UHGV virus genome: UHGV-0076264
DNA length: 29,064 nucleotides
Reading direction: 5' to 3' (one strand)
Origin: a virus
Positions within the stretch are counted from its first letter, which is position 1, and every line of letters begins with the position of its first letter. The position numbers and the translations under genes are program-made. Below the pieces are notes generated by a model. The model was not told the DNA's origin. It worked only from the letters and a program-made list of their open reading frames with translations, and did not search any database. This document shows, piece by piece, positions 2,841 through 27,140 of the stretch.

Positions 2841-3548
2841 TTATCCTTCTGTTGCGGGTTGATGTGGTTCAGGGCATAAGCCGGACAGCACTTCACCTAT
2901 GAACCGGAAATGAGGTAATGCCTGTAAAAATTTCGGGCGAGAAAGGATGTCGCGCACCGTGGCGTCGGGTGTAAAAGTGTCCGGATGAAGCGTGACGCAC
3001 CGGATATCAGTCAGTGGCAGTGCGATGATGCGTGTCTGGTGTGCCCCTGTCAGATACCAGCTACCGGCATGCAGAACCAGGCGGTAGGGTGAGATATCCG
3101 TATGGTTGCATCCGTTGCCGTGCAGAGTCACTTTCCGGTATTCCTGGACAGCATTTACCAGCCGGATAAAGACTCCACTGTCGGTGACGGTCTGTGCAGA
3201 ATCTCCCTGCCAGATAAGGCAGGGAGATTCACCCGGCCCACCCAGAAGTGAACTGACCAGATGTCCGTCAAGTCCCGGAAACAGGGACTCAACGCCCGAC
3301 TGACGGGCAAAGGTTATCACTGCCAGTTCCCGCTGACGGCTGCCGGACAGCAGACGGCACTGGCCCTGTCGATACTCCAGGTCCAGGTACATCAGTCGTT
3401 CACGAAAATCCCGGCGCAGGGTACGAACTGACACGTCAAATTCAGCAGCCAGTTTGCGTATATCCAGCGTTTCGCCTGCCACCAGACGGCTAATAATTAT
3501 CGACAGTCTGACGGCAAGCCGGTCATGGCGATGCTCAGCCTGAGTCAT
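2841..3548 (-). CDS. WYL-domain transcriptional regulator with N-terminal HTH (YfjR-like), 235 aa
   Basis: N-terminal DeoR-like HTH (LDIRKLAAEFDVSVRTLRRDF), C-terminal WYL-like region (GSWYLTG); family recalled from CP4-57 yfjR. Confidence 0.75.
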   Translation of the reverse strand: MTQAEHRHDRLAVRLSIIISRLVAGETLDIRKLAAEFDVSVRTLRRDFRERLMYLDLEYRQGQCRLLSGSRQRELAVITFARQSGVESLFPGLDGHLVSSLLGGPGESPCLIWQGDSAQTVTDSGVFIRLVNAVQEYRKVTLHGNGCNHTDISPYRLVLHAGSWYLTGAHQTRIIALPLTDIRCVTLHPDTFTPDATVRDILSRPKFLQALPHFRFIGEVLSGLCPEPHQPATEG

Positions 3549-5704: not shown

Positions 5705-8356
5705 ATGTCTGTGAGCTGGACTAAAGCTGATTTTTTTAAGTGCGCTTTGCAGGTAAATCCTGCGGGTTACAGTAAGTATCGCGGGAAAGAATCACTTAGC
5801 GAGGATACCTACAATCAGAAGCTGTTGGAGTCCTGCCTCGAAGCTGGTATACAGATTGTCGGTGTTGCGGACCATGGTGCTGTTAATGCTGTAGACAGGA
5901 TTCGTCAGCTCTTTAAGGAACATGGTATTGTCGTTTTTCCTGGATTTGAGATCTGCTCGAGCGAAAAAATTCATTTCGTTTGTTTGTTTGATGAAAACCG
6001 GACAGTACAAGAATTGGAACGCTGCTTGAGCAATCTGGGGTATGAAAATCCCGATGATTGCATTTCCCCTTCAAGGCTCAGCGCCATACAGATTATTGAA
6101 AAAGTAGAATGTTTGGGGGGATTTATTTTCGCTGCACATAGCACGAATGATAATGGCGTGCTGAAATGCCGTATGAATCATATATGGAAAGAACGTGGGT
6201 TGTTGGCGGCGCAGATTCCAGGAACTGTCGATGACTTGAAAGGAGTTGAGGATGATTTTTATCGCAAAGCTATCCTGAACAAACTTCCTGACTATCGTCG
6301 CGAGCGTCCTATTGCCATTATCAACGCGGCAGATGTTGCCCAACCAGAGGAAATTAAAACTCCGGGCGCATCCTGCCTGATAAAAATGACTCGGCCATGC
6401 TTCAGTTCATTTAAACAGGCATTTTTAGATCCAGAGTCACGAGTGCGTCTCAACGCAGATAAGCCACATTGCTATGCTTCGGCAATTGAAAATATTCATT
6501 TTACTGGTGGATATCTGGACGAAACCAATATCACCTTTTCTGACCACCTCAATGCTGTTATAGGTGGGCGTGGGACAGGTAAATCGACTTTGCTGGAGGC
6601 CATTCGCTTTGCTCTGGGTAAACAGCCTTTTGGTGATTCAGCACAAAAGCAACATAGTGCAATTATTAAAACTAACTTAGGGAACGGTACGCTGGTTCAA
6701 CTACAGGTTCGCTCTGCTATGATGCAAGGCCGTACCTTTACCATAAGTCGCAAATTTGGCGGGAAATCCATTGTAACAGACAGTGAAGGGAAAGTTTCAT
6801 CTTATACCCCAGATGATTTACTTCCTAGGTTGGAATTGTATGGGCAGAACGAAATTTATGAAATGACCCGCGATATTCATAGTCGTAATCGTTTGGTTGA
6901 GAGATTCTTGGAAGGAGATCATAGCAAGTACGATGTGATAATCGATAAGGTCTTGTCACGCTTGGAAGAGAGTAGCATTACTATCCTAAATGCTCTTGAG
7001 CAAAAGGCAGAGATAGAACTTGAAGTAGCACGATTGCCGAAACTACTGGAGCAGGCAGAGCAATTTAAACAGCTTGGCCTGGATGAAAAACTCAAAATTG
7101 TTCCTTTACTGGAAAAAGAGAAGCAGCTTAGCTTACGTCATCAGGAAGAATTATCTAGGGTGAAGGATGTTCTTCAGAAACTAAAAGACAGCCTGCCTGA
7201 CCTCGCTTATCTTGGCGATGGCGTGATAAATGTCATGCCTCACCACTCTCTTTTTCTCCAGCAACGTGATGTACTCCAACGAGCACAGGAGCAATTGTCA
7301 ACACTAGTTCAACATATTGATGAGACCCTTCAGCGGTCATTTGCGGAACTTGCTCCTTTACAACTTGAGTTATCAGATCTAATCGGTGCAGAAGAAGCTC
7401 AGCTTGAAAAAGCCTTTAAAGATATTCCAGCCAGCCAGGGAAAAAGTGGGCGACAGATTGGCGCAGAGTATCAAATATTGTTACGTCAAATTGCTTCTAT
7501 TCGCCCTAAAGCAACGGAGCTGGAGAACTGGCAAAAGCAACTTGATGAGCTGTACCAGCAGCGTAAAAGACACCTTCTGGAACTTATTCAGGCTCGTTCT
7601 CAACGTTCTGCTGCATTGGCAAAATCCGTCAAGCGCTTAAATAGAAGACTGGATGAAAAAGTGCGACTCAATTTGCAGCCAGAAGGTAACCGTCAACCCC
7701 TGTTGCATTTTCTGGAGCAATGTAATCTGGAAGGGGTAGGCTCACGACGCCTCGCTTGGGTATTGGAGCATGATTTTTCACCGGAAAATCTGGTTGAGAG
7801 TATCCGCCTTGGTGAACAAGCATTACATAATGCCGGGTGGGGAATTACACCAACAGTCATCCAGGCATTATTGCGGTTGAGCGAAAAGCAGCTTCTAGAA
7901 CTGGAAGCATTATCATTACCGGATACGATGCAAATTGAGCTGAATGTCATGCATGACGGTGGTGGCGTACTTTGGCGCCCTATCGATGAGCTATCGACTG
8001 GGCAGCAGTGTACTGCTGTACTGCATTTATTGTTGTTAGATAATAAGGACCCACTGATCCTCGATCAACCTGAGGATAACCTTGATAATGCATTTATTGC
8101 AGAGCGTATAGTGACGGAACTGCGTAGGGCGAAGCTGTCCCGGCAGTTTTTATTTGCCACACATAACGCTAACATACCAGTTTTCGGTGATGCTGAATGG
8201 ATTGGTGTGTTGAGTGTGGAAGAGGGGAAAGGGCGTATCCTTCCTGAACAGCAAGGGGCGATTGATCTACCTGAAATCCAGTGTCTGGCGGCGAATATCC
8301 TCGAAGGTGGTCAAAGTGCCTTTAATCAGCGCCGGGAAAAATATGGATTCAAATAA
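5705..8356 (+). CDS. PHP-like phosphoesterase domain fused to Rad50/SbcC-like ABC ATPase with coiled-coil insert, 883 aa; candidate single-protein anti-phage nuclease (Ppl-like)
   Basis: N-terminal PHP-like motifs (VGVADHG, FPGFE, FAAHS); Walker A GGRGTGKST; long heptad-rich middle; ABC signature LSTGQQ; Walker B LILDQPEDNLD; H-loop FATHNAN; GGAG-like RBS before ATG 5705. Confidence 0.85.
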   Translation: MSVSWTKADFFKCALQVNPAGYSKYRGKESLSEDTYNQKLLESCLEAGIQIVGVADHGAVNAVDRIRQLFKEHGIVVFPGFEICSSEKIHFVCLFDENRTVQELERCLSNLGYENPDDCISPSRLSAIQIIEKVECLGGFIFAAHSTNDNGVLKCRMNHIWKERGLLAAQIPGTVDDLKGVEDDFYRKAILNKLPDYRRERPIAIINAADVAQPEEIKTPGASCLIKMTRPCFSSFKQAFLDPESRVRLNADKPHCYASAIENIHFTGGYLDETNITFSDHLNAVIGGRGTGKSTLLEAIRFALGKQPFGDSAQKQHSAIIKTNLGNGTLVQLQVRSAMMQGRTFTISRKFGGKSIVTDSEGKVSSYTPDDLLPRLELYGQNEIYEMTRDIHSRNRLVERFLEGDHSKYDVIIDKVLSRLEESSITILNALEQKAEIELEVARLPKLLEQAEQFKQLGLDEKLKIVPLLEKEKQLSLRHQEELSRVKDVLQKLKDSLPDLAYLGDGVINVMPHHSLFLQQRDVLQRAQEQLSTLVQHIDETLQRSFAELAPLQLELSDLIGAEEAQLEKAFKDIPASQGKSGRQIGAEYQILLRQIASIRPKATELENWQKQLDELYQQRKRHLLELIQARSQRSAALAKSVKRLNRRLDEKVRLNLQPEGNRQPLLHFLEQCNLEGVGSRRLAWVLEHDFSPENLVESIRLGEQALHNAGWGITPTVIQALLRLSEKQLLELEALSLPDTMQIELNVMHDGGGVLWRPIDELSTGQQCTAVLHLLLLDNKDPLILDQPEDNLDNAFIAERIVTELRRAKLSRQFLFATHNANIPVFGDAEWIGVLSVEEGKGRILPEQQGAIDLPEIQCLAANILEGGQSAFNQRREKYGFK

Positions 8357-14421: not shown

Positions 14422-14525
14422 TGCCTGTCAATTTTTATCAACAGGTGTTTTTCATAACGCAATGTTTTATAATGAATTACTTGTTTTAAGAGTAGATTTT
14501 TAAAGGGGTAAAAATATAATAACGT

Positions 14526-14574
14526 CGCATTCGTAATGCGAAGGTCGTAGGTTCGACTCCTATTATCGGCACCA
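14526..14574 (+). repeat. Attachment-site copy: 3-prime 49 nt of tRNA-Thr(CGU) (thrW), not a complete tRNA gene
   Basis: Anticodon stem-loop CGCATTCGTAATGCG (anticodon CGT), T-arm GGTTCGACTCC and acceptor 3-prime strand TATTATCGGCACCA are present; the D-arm and 5-prime acceptor strand GCCGATA are absent upstream. Confidence 0.8.
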
Positions 14575-16495: not shown

Positions 16496-16593
16496 CTTTC
16501 ATTAATCCCTGAATTGTTGGTTAATACGCTTGAGGGTAAATGCGAATAATAAAAAAGGAGCCTGTAGCTCCCTGATGATTTTGCTTTTCATGT

Positions 16594-17077: not shown

Positions 17078-17228
17078 ACAGCCCCTCGTTTATTATTTAT
17101 CTCCTCAGCCAGCCGCTGGGCTTTCAGTGGATTTTGGATAACAGAAAGGCTGGGAAATACCCAGCCTCGCTTTGTAACGGAGTAGACGAAAGTGATCGCG
17201 CCTACCCGGATATTATCGTGAGGATGCG

Positions 17229-17909
17229 TCATCGCCATTGCTCCCCAAATACAAAACCAATTTCAGCCAGTGCCTCGTCCATTTTTTCGATGAACTCCGG
17301 CACCATCTCGTCAAAACTCGCCATGTACTTTTCATTCCGCTCAATCACGACATAATGCAGGCCTTCACGCTTCATGCGCGGGTCATAGTTGGCAAAGTAC
17401 CAGGCATCTTTTCGCGTCACCCACATGCTGTACTGCACCTGGGCCATGTAAGCCGATTTTATTGCCTCGAAACCACCGAGCCGGAATTTCATGAAATCCC
17501 GGGAGGTAAACGGGCATTTCAGTTCAAGGCCGTTGCCGTCACTGCATAAACCATCGGGAGAGCAGGCGGTGCGCATATTTTCGTCGCGATAGATGATCGG
17601 GGATTCAGTAATATTCACGCCGGAAGTGAATTCAAACAGGGTTCTGGCGTCGTTCTCGTACTGTTTTCCCCAGGCCAGCGCCTTAGCATTAACTTCCGGA
17701 GCCACACCGGTGCAAACCTCAGCCAGCAGGGTGTGGAAGTAGGACATTTTCATGTCAGGCCACTTCTTTCCTGAGCGGGGCTTTGCTATCACGTTGTGAA
17801 CTTCTGAAGCGGTGATGACGCCGAGCCGTAATTTGTGCCATGCATCATCCCCCTGTTCGACAGCTCTCACGTCGATCCCGGTACGCTGCAGGATAATGTC
17901 CGGTGTCAT
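17229..17909 (-). CDS. exo: Lambda exonuclease (Red alpha), 226 aa
   Basis: Near-identical to lambda Exo as recalled ([54 protein letters not shown]...). Confidence 0.95.
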
Positions 17910-18696: not shown

Positions 18697-18993
18697 TTAT
18701 ACCTCTGAATCAATATCAACCTGGTGGTGAGCAATGGTTTCAACCATGTACCGGATGTGTTCTGCCATGCGCTCCTGAAACTCAACATCGTCATCAAACG
18801 CACGGGTAATGGCTTTTTTGCTGGCCCCGTGGCGTTGCAAATGATCGATGCATAGCGATTCAAACAGGTGCTGGGGCAGGCTTTTTTCCATGTCGTCTGC
18901 CAGTTCTGCCTCTTTCTCTTCACGGGCGAGCTGCTGGTAGTGACGCGCCCAGCTCTGAGCCTCAAGACGATCCTGAATGTAATAAGCGTTCAT
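18697..18993 (-). CDS. gam: Lambda Gam (short form GamS), RecBCD inhibitor, 98 aa
   Basis: [37 protein letters not shown]... matches lambda Gam; an in-frame stop lies 19 codons upstream of the ATG. Confidence 0.9.
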
Positions 18994-19069
18994 GGCTGAA
19001 CTCCTGAAAATGGCTGTGAAAATATCGCCCGCGAAATGCCAGGCTGATTAGGAAAACAGGAAAGGGGGG

Positions 19070-19276
19070 TTAGTGATTCAGGCCGTTACCGCGTCCGTCG
19101 AGAAAAACTTCCACGAGCAAATCACTGGTATAAGTGCGCTCGATGCCGCGATGCAGATAAAGCCGTCCGCGTAAATTAGCTGATGCAGTCCAGGTACCAT
19201 CTTTGTGTTTGACCAGCATTCCTGGCATGACCGCGCCGCGATTAACGGTCTGTGTTCCGTAATGTTGATGAACCAT
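19070..19276 (-). CDS. Possible Kil-like small protein, 68 aa (start chosen at ATG 19276 with AGGAG upstream; the ORF track extends it to 19480 from a TTG)
   Basis: Position immediately upstream of gam, with its stop inside the gam-L-homologous leader, corresponds to kil in lambda; sequence identity to Kil not confirmed. Confidence 0.3.
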   Translation of the reverse strand: MVHQHYGTQTVNRGAVMPGMLVKHKDGTWTASANLRGRLYLHRGIERTYTSDLLVEVFLDGRGNGLNH

Positions 19277-19498
19277 AAAAACTCCTGCCCGTAAGCTGGG
19301 CTGCTGAACATATAGAGACTTCTGCGCATATTCAGGCGGTGGATGGCCGCCGGTTGTCATAACTAAGCCGCCTCGTTGAAGCGACTGAGGTATGAAATGT
19401 TGAGTTAATTTCAGCTGGTCACACCGACGTTCACGCGTCCGTTTCACCCCTCGCACTCCCCGAAGCCTGCTGAAATTCAAACTGCGGATCTAAGCGGT

Positions 19499-19612
19499 CA
19501 TCGCAACGGTGAATCAGGTAGTTGCCGTATCGTTGTGTTGTTGCGATGAACTTATTTAAAACTATAGTTGTTTTATCGTCAACAACAAAAGTTGTTTTAT
19601 TGGTTGTTTTAG
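19499..19612. promoter_or_regulatory. Leftward early promoter/operator region (OL/pL-like) with cI-type half-sites and a 9-bp inverted repeat
   Basis: Palindromes built on AACAAC/GTTGTT half-sites (AACAACAAAAGTTGTT at about 19581-19596) that recur in the cI-cro intergenic region; inverted repeat CATCGCAAC/GTTGCGATG at 19499-19507 / 19540-19548. Confidence 0.5.
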
Positions 19613-19720
19613 ATATAACTGGTTGTATTTAGGATGGATTTATTTTGTGACTTGAATCGCATAGCGATAACTGAAGCGAGGTTATGGTGGTTTTTTTAAC
19701 GGTGTGTGTGATGAGGGGAG

Positions 19721-19750
19721 GGCAAAAGAAAACCCGGCACGGTGACCGGG
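19721..19750 (-). terminator. Intrinsic terminator downstream of cI
   Basis: Stem CCCGG/CCGGG (19733-19737 / 19746-19750) followed on the minus strand by TTTTCTTTTG. Confidence 0.5.
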
Positions 19751-19871
19751 ATTCTTACGCCGTTAGGTAAAGATATTATTGCGGTGGCTTAATATTACTA
19801 CCTAGAGCAAAGATAGGAATTAGTTCTTTACTGAATGAGCACAATGCCCAGTTGATAATTTTTAATTGGTA

Positions 19872-20561
19872 CTACCCATGCTTCCTATATGTCTGCGGCA
19901 TGCTCCCAATAACCTTACCGAAGATGAACACCCGGTTCATCTCGTCTTTCTCGATCGGGTCCCACGGTGAGTAGCTTTTGTTATCAGAGATGACCAGCAG
20001 CTTATCCTTCATCATTTGCAGGCGCTTTACATGGGCTGTGTCGTCGTACAGAAACGCATAGATACCATCACCGTCGAAAGATTTAACTGTGATATCAACG
20101 AACAGCAGATCACCTGGTTCGATCGTTCCTGACATGCTGTCACCACGCACGTTAATGATGCGGATATTTTCCGCCTTCCTACCATCGAACATGTGACGAG
20201 CATCGTCAAACGAGTACTCAACCGAGCGTAGAACTTCTACAAACTCACGGTTGATGACTCCCGGCCCAGCACTGACTTCTATATCAAGAACGTCAATCTT
20301 GAAGTATTTGGAATGGCTGACAGTTGATTGTATTGGTTGCACTGTACTGTCTGACATATTTCCAACGCCAGAAGATAACCATTCTGCGCGCACACCCAAA
20401 GCGTTCGCGATCTCCACGATTTTAGTTGTTTGATTAGCTTTCCCTGTTTCGATTTTCTGAATAGCAGCCTGGCTAACCCCGACCAAATCCCCAAGCGCCT
20501 TTTGTGTAAGGCCTCGCGCTAATCTGGCTTCTTTAAGTCTTTCTGAGAGTGTTGTTTTCAT
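19872..20561 (-). CDS. cI: CI-type prophage repressor (N-terminal HTH, C-terminal S24/LexA-like peptidase), 229 aa
   Basis: HTH (LTQKALGDLVGVSQAAIQKIETGK) and S24 region (RGDSMSGTIEPGDLLFVD ... VKRL); ORF trimmed to ATG at 20561. Confidence 0.85.
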   Translation of the reverse strand: MKTTLSERLKEARLARGLTQKALGDLVGVSQAAIQKIETGKANQTTKIVEIANALGVRAEWLSSGVGNMSDSTVQPIQSTVSHSKYFKIDVLDIEVSAGPGVINREFVEVLRSVEYSFDDARHMFDGRKAENIRIINVRGDSMSGTIEPGDLLFVDITVKSFDGDGIYAFLYDDTAHVKRLQMMKDKLLVISDNKSYSPWDPIEKDEMNRVFIFGKVIGSMPQTYRKHG

Positions 20562-20665
20562 AGTCCAAATGTACAACCAAGGTTTTATTTCATCAAACGA
20601 AAATGGTTGTTGACTAAAAACAACCATAGTTTTAATCTTGATTCAAATTAACCACGGAGGTTGTT
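20562..20665. promoter_or_regulatory. OR/pR/pRM-like operator-promoter region between cI and cro
   Basis: Inverted repeat TGGTTGTT-n7-AACAACCA and related half-sites in the 104-bp divergent intergenic region; RBS GGAGG before cro. Confidence 0.6.
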
Positions 20666-20896
20666 ATGAACCCAGCTATCAAAACAGCGATCAATATCGT
20701 TGGTTCACAAAAGAAACTGGGCGCTGCTTGCGAAGTTTCACAGCAGGCCGTCTATAAGTGGCTTCACAACAAAGCAAAGGTATCCCCTGAACATGTCGGC
20801 AGCATTGTTACGGCTACTGGTGGAGTAGTGAAGGCATACCAGATTCGCCCGGATCTTCCGAAGTTGTTTCCACACACCGAAAAGAACGCAGCTTAA
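20666..20896 (+). CDS. cro: Cro-like HTH repressor, 76 aa
   Basis: Small HTH protein (QKKLGAACEVSQQAVYKWL) transcribed divergently from cI. Confidence 0.8.
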   Translation: MNPAIKTAINIVGSQKKLGAACEVSQQAVYKWLHNKAKVSPEHVGSIVTATGGVVKAYQIRPDLPKLFPHTEKNAA

Positions 20897-20908
20897 ATTT
20901 CCATTTCA

Positions 20909-20922
20909 CGCTCTTTAACAAT
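20909..20922 (+). promoter_or_regulatory. boxA-like element (CGCTCTTTAACAAT) at the nutR-equivalent position, with no obvious boxB hairpin
   Basis: Match to the boxA consensus GCTCTTTAACAA 13 nt after the cro stop; no GC-rich boxB stem-loop found downstream. Confidence 0.4.
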
Positions 20923-20965
20923 AAGCAATCAACTTAACAGTCAATTCAAACTAAAGGAGTCAATT

Positions 20966-21505
20966 ATGCAACCACTTCCATACCAACAGACTAGCGGATT
21001 TAGCCCGACTGCGGTGATAAATCGTTCTCAAACAAAACAGGTGCCAGGCCACGAAAAAATCCGTGATGCCGTCCGCGCCTGGTCGGCTGTAGATAATCAG
21101 GATGTCGTTGCCACACTCATTGTGAATGAGTATCGGGAGCAGGGCGGCGGCACCATCGATTTCCCTGATGATGTCAGCCGTGCACGCCAGAAGCTGTTCC
21201 GCTTCCTCGATAACAAATTCGATTCTGAAAAATACCGAAATAACGTGCGTGAACTGACCCCGGCAATTCTGGCGGTACTACCGCTGGAATATCGCGGTTA
21301 CCTGGTTGAGCAGGATAGCTTCATGGCCAGGTTGGCTGAAATGGAAAAGGAACTCAGTGAGGCAAAACAGGCTGTCATTCTCAACGCACCACGCCACCAG
21401 AAACTGAAGGAAATTAGTGAAGGTATTGTATCGATGTTTCGTGTGGACCCAGATCTGGCTGGTCCATTGATGGCGATGGTTACTACCATGCTGGGGGCGA
21501 TATGA
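20966..21505 (+). CDS. CII-like lysogeny regulatory protein (phage CP76-type family, tentative), 179 aa
   Basis: Position directly after cro; size and composition fit the larger CII-like family; family assignment from memory. Confidence 0.5.
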   Translation: MQPLPYQQTSGFSPTAVINRSQTKQVPGHEKIRDAVRAWSAVDNQDVVATLIVNEYREQGGGTIDFPDDVSRARQKLFRFLDNKFDSEKYRNNVRELTPAILAVLPLEYRGYLVEQDSFMARLAEMEKELSEAKQAVILNAPRHQKLKEISEGIVSMFRVDPDLAGPLMAMVTTMLGAI

Positions 21506-23948: not shown

Positions 23949-23989
23949 GGAGGCTCTTATATTTATATGAGCCTCGTTTTATGCTTTTT
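23949..23989 (+). terminator. Intrinsic terminator after emrE
   Basis: Stem GAGGCTC/GAGCCTC (23950-23956 / 23969-23975) followed by GTTTTATGCTTTTTG. Confidence 0.6.
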
Positions 23990-24173
23990 GTTAATGTCTT
24001 TATTTTTTTATGTATTCTTTTGTGCTTTCAAGATTATGGCGTAAGAAAATTGCAATACGATTATTGTTGTATATTCAAGATAATGTGACCTTAATTGTCT
24101 TTTTAAATAAAAATTAAACAAAATTATATCCCACCACTAAGGTTTATAAAAGCATACGTTAGCAGGTGTCACC

Positions 24174-26953: not shown

Positions 26954-27140
26954 AACCTTTGATTTGCGATAATCAACTCGCCATAATCATGTCATCGGAG
27001 CCTGAACAACTCCGGTGACTTCTGCGCTAAACGGGGACGTTTATGCGCACACACAATCCAAACTCTCTTCTCCCTCCACAGATGCAGAAATGCACCTGCG
27101 ATATATTGTATCCAGCGTTTGACCTCTGCGGAGGTGAAGC

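Follow-up and report, generated by a model that had tools for sequence, protein, structure and literature searches.

Results

The Early-Control Region of a Widespread Lambda-Like Prophage

The 29,064-nucleotide stretch of viral DNA considered here (UHGV virus genome UHGV-0076264; hereafter, the window) comprises a lambda-like prophage from approximately 15.5 kb onward, and we focused on the segment of this prophage (positions 18994–20965) that contains the early promoters, the leader of the left operon, cI, cro, and a boxA, and that apparently encodes no N antitermination system. This segment is 99.4–99.7% identical to phages PhiR34_1 and Turner, and the nin/Q region of the prophage is similar to that of DLP12-type phages. 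It appears to represent the region for immunity and early control in a very common, N-less lineage of lambda-like Escherichia coli prophages (DLP12-like or Bievrevirus-like). The lineage takes in inducible, plaque-forming phages with lambda-like structural and recombination genes, and near-identical PhiR34_1, with a genome of 44.6 kb, was used as its complete sister. The left-operon leader described below is present in 2238 of 5426 complete E. coli genomes (41%) and the junction that carries boxA in 1515 of the 5426, while the leader and the conserved linker near its kil end carry no annotation in RefSeq.

The genes exo (17229–17909), bet (between exo and gam), and gam (18697–18993, minus strand; host nuclease inhibitor; Pfam Gam, E = 4e-64) are oriented leftward. 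The interval between gam, the start codon of which ends at 18993, and cI, the stop codon of which begins at 19872, measures 879 bp, compared to approximately 4.0 kb in lambda (gam start at 33232, cI end at 37227), in agreement with the ~880 bp given by an earlier reading of this DNA from its letters and open reading frames (ORFs) (hereafter, the sequence-only reading). That reading contrasted the interval with that of lambda, where kil, cIII, ea10, ral, sieB, N, and rexAB are located, and overlooked a kil-type gene at 19070–19276 (minus strand; 68 amino acids; non-lambda Kil type; phrog_294, E = 3e-38) that has AGGAG 6 nucleotides (nt) upstream of its ATG. Likewise left out were a second inverted repeat, oL/pL, and the terminator of cI, all of which are located within the same 879 bp. 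On the minus strand, the order of elements is the cI terminator, three operator-like repeats, pL, a 270-nt leader, and kil.

The repressor gene cI (19872–20564, minus strand; Pfam HTH_3 and Peptidase_S24, i.e., helix-turn-helix and S24 peptidase domains) is followed by the intrinsic terminator of its transcript (19750–19733, minus strand; CCCGGTCACCGTGCCGGG then TTTTCTTTTG). Homology among 80 related loci stops at 19750, the left edge of an accessory-gene insertion site. The segment 19750–19830, between cI and the pL-side terminator and in the position of lambda rexAB, is an insertion hot spot that holds GevT/GevA (PhiR47_2 and 4A7) or a HipA-like toxin-antitoxin (PhiR5_1) in relatives and is empty in the window. 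The oL operators (19554–19615, minus strand) are 17-mers of the AAAACAACTATAGTTTT type that were recognized as direct repeats (D1), with the three operator-like repeats at approximately 19555–19615. The promoter layout predicts pL on the same strand, with a −35 element TTGACG at 19582–19577, a −10 element TTAAAT at 19559–19554, and a start at approximately 19547. This layout mirrors that of pR, in which a −35 element and a −10 element likewise flank 17 nt that hold the same operator, AAAACAACTATAGTTTT. The oR operators and pR (20570–20646, plus strand; −35 TTGACT at 20610–20615, −10 TAATCT at 20633–20638) were predicted from repeats (D2 and I6) and from direct reading of the sequence.

Rightward from pR, cro (20666–20896, plus strand; YdaS family; Pfam YdaS_toxin, E = 4e-17; phrog_35) ends in a TAA stop at 20894–20896 and is followed by a cII-equivalent gene of the YdaT family (20966–21505, plus strand; Pfam YdaT_toxin, E = 8.5e-30; phrog_163, CII-like), with O and P to the right of it. 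YdaT is considered to be the equivalent of CII (PMC9986795; PMC8630535).

Absence of N and of HK022-Type put RNA

No N family was detected among ORFs of at least 20 amino acids in 18994–19871 using PHROGs and Pfam, and none of the early genes in the complete genome of the sister matched N either, with a Q-type antiterminator being the only one found. These results bear out the claim of the sequence-only reading that no N-like ORF is present. Sensitive searches for a small N-like protein in the region, which combined PHROGs, Pfam, a search of 5.8 billion proteins, and tblastn, found none.

An arginine-rich ORF on the minus strand at 19400–19480 (beginning MNFSRLRGVRGVKRTRERR; peptide RLRGVRGVKRTRERR) mimics the RNA-binding motif of N-type proteins. 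It starts with TTG and runs in frame into kil, and some pipelines annotate it as a long ‘Kil’. Its arginine-rich N-terminus is superficially like the RNA-binding motif of N proteins and would be the ground for regarding it as the gene of a small N-like protein, which is extremely improbable given that the TTG start has no Shine–Dalgarno sequence, that the frame is broken in relatives by indels of 1, 1, and 5 nt, that no family matches it except for a weak PHROG of unknown function (E = 0.024), that the 5.8-billion-protein search and a tblastn search of a phage collection returned no homologs other than ORFs called sporadically on this very leader, and that no boxB partner exists. We regard the ORF as a by-product of G-rich RNA. 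A hidden N or a remnant of N was also considered as a candidate and rejected, since the searches returned only ORF calls on this leader.

The sequence-only reading had further proposed that the phage might use a put-like RNA. We built a covariance model (R1) from eight put RNAs, comprising putL of HK022 (numbered after the cryo-electron microscopy paper; PMC9378689), HK639, phiEt88, CobraSix, S9-5, UPF_BP1, and PdC23 together with putR of HK022, and ran it on the window with filters off. The nested stems of the put alignment exhibit strong covariation, with 93% of positions paired and six pairs with double changes. The model recovered the seven putL at 65–101 bits and three copies of putR at 54–56 bits (those of UPF_BP1 and phiEt88 were untrained, while that of HK022 was in the training set). 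The best score in the window was 9 bits (E = 0.79), at unrelated sites, and three sister loci (L003, L050, and L084) were also negative. With at most 9 bits in the window versus 54–101 bits for true put sites, the proposal fails for an RNA of the known HK022 kind, and an HK022-type put is excluded from the region. Rfam returned nothing relevant, either at gathering thresholds on the whole window or in E-value mode on 18950–21050. No left/right pair of related elements was identified, in that the transcript from pR has no counterpart to the inverted repeat in the pL leader.

A Conserved Linker Without Its Upstream Terminator

The kil-proximal part of the pL leader contains a linker (19335–19395, minus strand) that is conserved in lambdoid left operons, with the same element being present in phi80, HK225, HK639, CobraSix, and S9-5. 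It comprises a hairpin at 19395–19357, the outer helix of which pairs CAUA with UAUG around an AUG at 19360 and the inner helix of which covaries, and a second hairpin at 19351–19335 (GGCGG-CCAUCCA-CCGCC) that is invariant. The six linker homologs fold alike despite different inner-helix sequences. The linker, which was located outside the window at L086 3001–3059, L089 4165–4216, L085 2501–2563, L091 3868–3929, and L092 2500–2558, precedes kil-type modules regardless of whether a lambdoid phage is of the N, put, or N-less type. The annotation of HK639 calls the second hairpin a terminator, and in CobraSix the reading frame after the linker AUG is not conserved.

All five relatives (phi80, HK225, HK639, CobraSix, and S9-5) encode a terminator, consisting of a GC hairpin and a T-run, directly before the linker, and in phi80 this terminator comes directly after the annotated N gene. 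The terminator is absent from the window, where homology (19397–19335) starts only at TTTCATACCT. In the absence of a terminator of the tL1 type before the linker, the proximal left operon (kil-gam-bet-exo) therefore needs no antiterminator. This absence, which the sequence-only reading overlooked, is the simplest account of how the left operon manages without N. The best-supported single statement that can be made from these comparisons is that the lineage appears to have lost N together with its proximal terminator, and the lack of both N and the terminator that N or put reads through in relatives would suffice for kil-gam-bet-exo to be expressed independently of N.

A near-identical hairpin, GCCGCC-UAA(C/U)C(A/U)-GCGGC, was observed at gene ends in several lambdoid phages, often with the TAA stop in its loop (L003 at ~6270–6300, L106 at 1163–1185, L086 at 2982–3003, and upstream of the linker in L091 and L092). 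With a T-run, the GCCGCC...GCGGC hairpin is the terminator after phi80 N; without a T-run, it covers the cro stop of 4A7-type phages and of Klebsiella phages.

Terminators Further Downstream

A hairpin at 17168–17146, just past exo, falls in a stretch that is identical to lambda at 148 of 151 positions (~98%) and that we take to be the position of lambda tL3. A strong terminator follows at 16573–16555, before a DksA/TraR-like gene and int. On the right, a credible intrinsic terminator was identified after emrE (~23950–23990; GAGGCTC, a 12-nt loop, GAGCCTC, and a U-rich tail, with a GC-rich stem of 7 bp), which in PhiR34_1 is the sole credible intrinsic terminator between pR and Q. A consensus terminator scan found nothing convincing on the right side before tR', and the 12-nt loop of the post-emrE terminator exceeds the loop-size limit of that scan. 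The idea that no intrinsic terminator exists from pR to Q, which was based on the consensus scan, was dropped after our own scan and direct reading found the post-emrE site. Since terminators remain on both sides, their passage or tolerance is still required. The reliance on Q alone that the sequence-only reading considered is possible, yet a credible terminator, that after emrE, sits between pR and Q.

The Inverted Repeat and the pL Leader

The inverted repeat to which the sequence-only reading drew attention (19498–19549, minus strand) exists, but it is longer than the 9 bp reported. Repeat scanning, folding, and shuffling describe perfect arms of 10 bp (19498–19507 and 19540–19549) around a 32-nt, C-rich loop. 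Dinucleotide shuffling of the 1972-bp region yielded a perfect inverted repeat this long or longer (≥10 bp, loop ≤60 nt) in 8.7% of cases, and the hairpin has a free energy (ΔG) of −13.3 kcal/mol (z = −2.3). On its own the repeat is weak evidence, being only marginally beyond chance. Because pL is predicted to start near 19547, the stem formed by 19549–19540 and 19507–19498 would be the first structure of the pL transcript, at its predicted 5' end. The middle of the leader (19400–19497, minus strand), which is found in the N-less lineage only and has no homolog outside of it, contains the second inverted repeat (I2; 19407–19418 and 19466–19477), and the helix of 19477–19466 with 19418–19407 closes two small hairpins (ΔG = −26.4, z = −2.1). 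The leader as a whole is approximately 270 nt long, is untranslated, and runs directly into kil-gam-bet-exo.

Eighty viral contigs with this type of Kil share the block 19750–19000 at 89–100% identity and comprise three promoter/operator classes. Class 1 is that of the window and class 2 (e.g., phage 4A7) has other operators. In both of these classes the leader starts at the predicted pL start, and their homology resumes exactly at TCGCAAC, the core of the 5' arm of the repeat. In class 3 (L050, L053, and L080), by contrast, homology is regained only at 19513, within the loop, and nothing equivalent to the 5' arm is present. Folding predicts a comparable 5' stem for class 2 and none for class 3. 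Ten loci that were found via Kil in other genera share at most the kil-proximal linker.

The comparison with related prophages that had been suggested as a check on the stem-loop yielded no compensatory changes in the hairpin among 61 distinct leader copies, with a stem-breaking change in one singleton, and showed that the 5' arm is absent from class 3. An antiterminator role for the repeat, as the sequence-only reading had envisaged, is unsupported in view of the lack of covariation, the frequency of comparable repeats in shuffled sequence, and the class without a 5' arm. The helix 19477/19407 displays one wobble-compatible change (A to G) among the same 61 copies, which are very similar to each other. 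A co-varying pair (U/A to C/G at 19463/19442) was rejected as evidence for pairing, since these positions cannot form a helix and the association is thus one of linkage. Nucleotide diversity (pi) is 0.019–0.047 in the leader, 0.017 in kil, and 0.025 in gam, and 16 of the 17 variable sites in kil among relatives are at third codon positions.

The pL leader (19549 to ~19400) could be a new cis-acting antiterminator RNA, analogous to putL, that allows transcription to pass the terminators after exo toward xis and int, but we consider this unlikely. Like putL, the leader begins at the predicted start of transcription (PMC9378689), and it is always directly downstream of pL in the three immunity classes. 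Such an RNA would operate in a lineage that has no N and no known put and that includes inducible, plaque-forming phages, and it would act on two terminator-like sites between exo and int, one in the lambda-identical stretch (148/151) and one strong. Set against this are the lack of compensatory changes, local folds with z scores of just −2.1 to −2.3 and a z score of +0.6 for the whole distal leader, the missing 5' arm of class 3, and the lack of a right-operon counterpart, of an Rfam match, and of a homolog outside the lineage.

Rather than an antiterminator, the same leader might be an attenuator, either Rho-dependent or a translational or ribonuclease target, that adjusts how much of the toxic kil is expressed. 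Its length of 270 nt, its untranslated state, and its C-rich, G-poor first ~40 nt are compatible with such a role, as is the conserved proximal hairpin, in which, in six phages, a GAGG and an AUG located shortly before kil are sequestered. However, the central part of the leader is rich in G (G, 0.33–0.38; C, 0.19–0.21), which is unfavorable for loading of Rho, and this role, suggested by sequence and predicted folding, is in our view even less likely than a new antiterminator RNA.

A boxA After cro

A boxA (CGCUCUUUAACAAU) is located in untranslated, unstructured RNA at 20909–20922 (plus strand). Its full span (CGCTCTTTAACAAT) contains the core GCTCTTTAACAA at 20910–20921, an exact 12/12 match to the E. 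coli consensus GCUCUUUAACAA, and it starts 12–13 nt past the cro stop, with 43 nt separating its end from the next start codon. The core GCTCTTTAACAA has a single exact match in the 29-kb window, where ~0.004 are expected from 4^-12, and boxA is the single match in the 44.6-kb genome of PhiR34_1 even when up to one mismatch is allowed. The consensus boxA that the sequence-only reading placed 13 nt past the cro stop is thereby upheld, and so is the lack of a boxB hairpin beside it, given that RNA 20870–20968 is unstructured (minimum free energy of −3.7 kcal/mol, z = +0.9). The pL leader contains no boxA when up to two mismatches are allowed, and no nutL/nutR pair is present.

Acting alone, boxA affords Nus-dependent protection from Rho at clustered regularly interspaced short palindromic repeat (CRISPR) arrays of Salmonella (PMC7665894), and a role for the boxA described here as an N-independent site for Nus factors is plausible. 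An 18-mer that comprises boxA and its flanks (TCACGCTCTTTAACAATA) also occurs, as an exact match, in noncoding DNA of several T7-like coliphages (K1E/SP6-like Vectrevirus) that are also without N.

It is also possible, although we judge it to be distinctly less probable than a Nus-loading role, that boxA is a functionless vestige of a nutR from an N-using ancestor and that the phage tolerates partial termination and relies on Q. Class 2 sisters with the same downstream genes have no boxA, and neither does the left leader. Moreover, rare variants (L047 and L058) differ from the window by a 12-nt indel between TAACAG direct repeats (20935–20945), and with their extra 12 nt a small hairpin would arise 22 nt past boxA (GACUG-AUKAA-CAGUC; a stem of 5 bp closing a pentaloop), such that the window could be a deletion derivative of a site that had both boxA and a hairpin. 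However, the loop of this variant (AUGAA or AUUAA) is unlike a GNRA-type boxB and, at 22 nt, the distance to boxA is large, and searches turned up no N-bearing phage with this cro/boxA module. Neutral decay would not leave a 12/12 match to the rrn boxA core of the host, although the lineage is too young for this to be judged.

Other Features of the Window

An exact inverted repeat, TTGATT-N6-AATCAA, occurs at 26959–26976, well to the right of the immunity region, and is the motif bound by YdaT of CP-933P (PMC9986795). Six matches to this motif with at most two mismatches were observed, a total that was reached in 4 of 100 shuffles. A weak tRNA match (29.7 bits) at 14507–14563, just before the integrase end of the prophage, is probably a fragment of the attachment-site tRNA. 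In the non-prophage part of the window, a long perfect palindrome is present at 3199–3230 (nested 10-mers 3199–3202 and 3218–3221).

Discussion

Early Transcription Without N

The explanation that we favor is that of an N-less early region in which terminator loss suffices on the left and boxA with Nus factors acts on the right, and we consider the chances that it holds as a whole to be evenly balanced. It builds on the observed gene map, the absence of N, an HK022-type put, and the pre-linker terminator, the boxA itself, and the prevalence of the lineage, in combination with predicted promoters and putative roles for boxA and the hairpin. Leftward transcription would initiate at pL and proceed through the ~270-nt untranslated leader into kil-gam-bet-exo without N, nutL, or a terminator of the tL1 type. 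The inverted repeat would be the 5'-terminal stem-loop of the pL mRNA, where it most likely protects the 5' end against decay or has no role. Rightward, the boxA in the position of nutR most likely loads NusB-S10 and other Nus factors independently of N, as in rrn and Salmonella CRISPR leaders, and this loading would render transcription from pR resistant to Rho on its way to Q. Q would then handle the late genes.

Several observations weigh against this explanation. The 1514 full-length copies of the boxA module are almost all at least 97.6% identical and thus essentially clonal (one boxA variant reads GTTCTTTAACAA), and among copies this similar, selection on boxA cannot be shown. The functional class 2 sister phages 4A7, 1W, 3W, and D2 share cII-O-P and are without boxA; instead, their cro stop is spanned by a hairpin, GCCGCC-UAAUCU-GCGGC. 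A Klebsiella phage whose cro is homologous likewise has no boxA, and a hairpin of the form GCCGCC-UAAyCw-GCGGC spans its cro stop. Diversity of the leader is no lower than that of neighboring genes, such that selective constraint is unproven, and the start of pL is a prediction only. Antitermination of the rrn type is, furthermore, poor on intrinsic terminators, and boxA would not explain read-through of the terminators after emrE, at 17168–17146, or at 16573–16555. We find it rather doubtful that the commonest lambda-like lineage of E. coli crosses its terminators without N or an HK022-type put by an undescribed route, whether a lone boxA with Nus factors or a new cis-acting antiterminator RNA within the first 150 nt of the pL leader. 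Nothing in the analysis shows a new mechanism, and the surprise that the lineage holds with respect to early antitermination is moderate rather than high.

The N/nut system of lambda is the textbook model of processive antitermination, and put RNA of HK022 is, to our knowledge, the sole well-studied alternative to it among lambdoid phages. A lambda-like lineage present in ~40% of complete E. coli genomes has neither N/nut nor an HK022-type put, and we found no discussion of early antitermination in this lineage in the searchable literature. If boxA is functional, then N-independent antitermination by Nus factors would extend from rrn and CRISPR leaders to an early operon of a phage. If it is not, then early antitermination is something that a lambda-type phage can do without, in part through the loss of a terminator, and this would affect how expression of prophage genes (kil, accessory genes, and int/xis) is predicted and annotated.

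Comparison With Known Antitermination Systems

Consensus-form boxA elements occur in P22 and phage 21. The region resembles the N-nut systems of lambda, P22, and phage 21 in having boxA directly after cro, in the position of nutR, and differs from them in having no N gene, boxB hairpin, or nutL. Its likeness to boxA of rrn and CRISPR leaders (PMC7665894) includes the exact GCUCUUUAACAA, the placement within untranslated RNA that heads a long transcription unit, and the lack of a dedicated phage protein. Unlike those leaders, it belongs to a phage early operon and has no boxC or boxB, its sister phages manage without boxA, and the function of its own boxA is putative. With HK022 (PMC9378689) and HK639 (annotated in NC_016158) it shares the state of a lambdoid phage that has no N and has a structured RNA at the predicted start of the pL transcript, but it yields no match to the put model and displays neither the conserved two-stem architecture nor covariation.

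The early-left region of phi80 (X13065) is homologous across the linker (19397–19335), with 85% identity and the same fold, and differs in that its linker comes after an annotated N gene and then a terminator (GCCGCCUAACCAGCGGC-UUUUU), neither of which is present in the window. In the nin5 variant of lambda, independence from N came about through the loss of terminators rather than the gain of an antiterminator, and the region is of the nin5 type in that the terminator of its relatives is absent at the equivalent junction. Unlike nin5, at least one intrinsic terminator is left downstream on each side, and the loss affects the left operon and represents the natural state of a widespread lineage.

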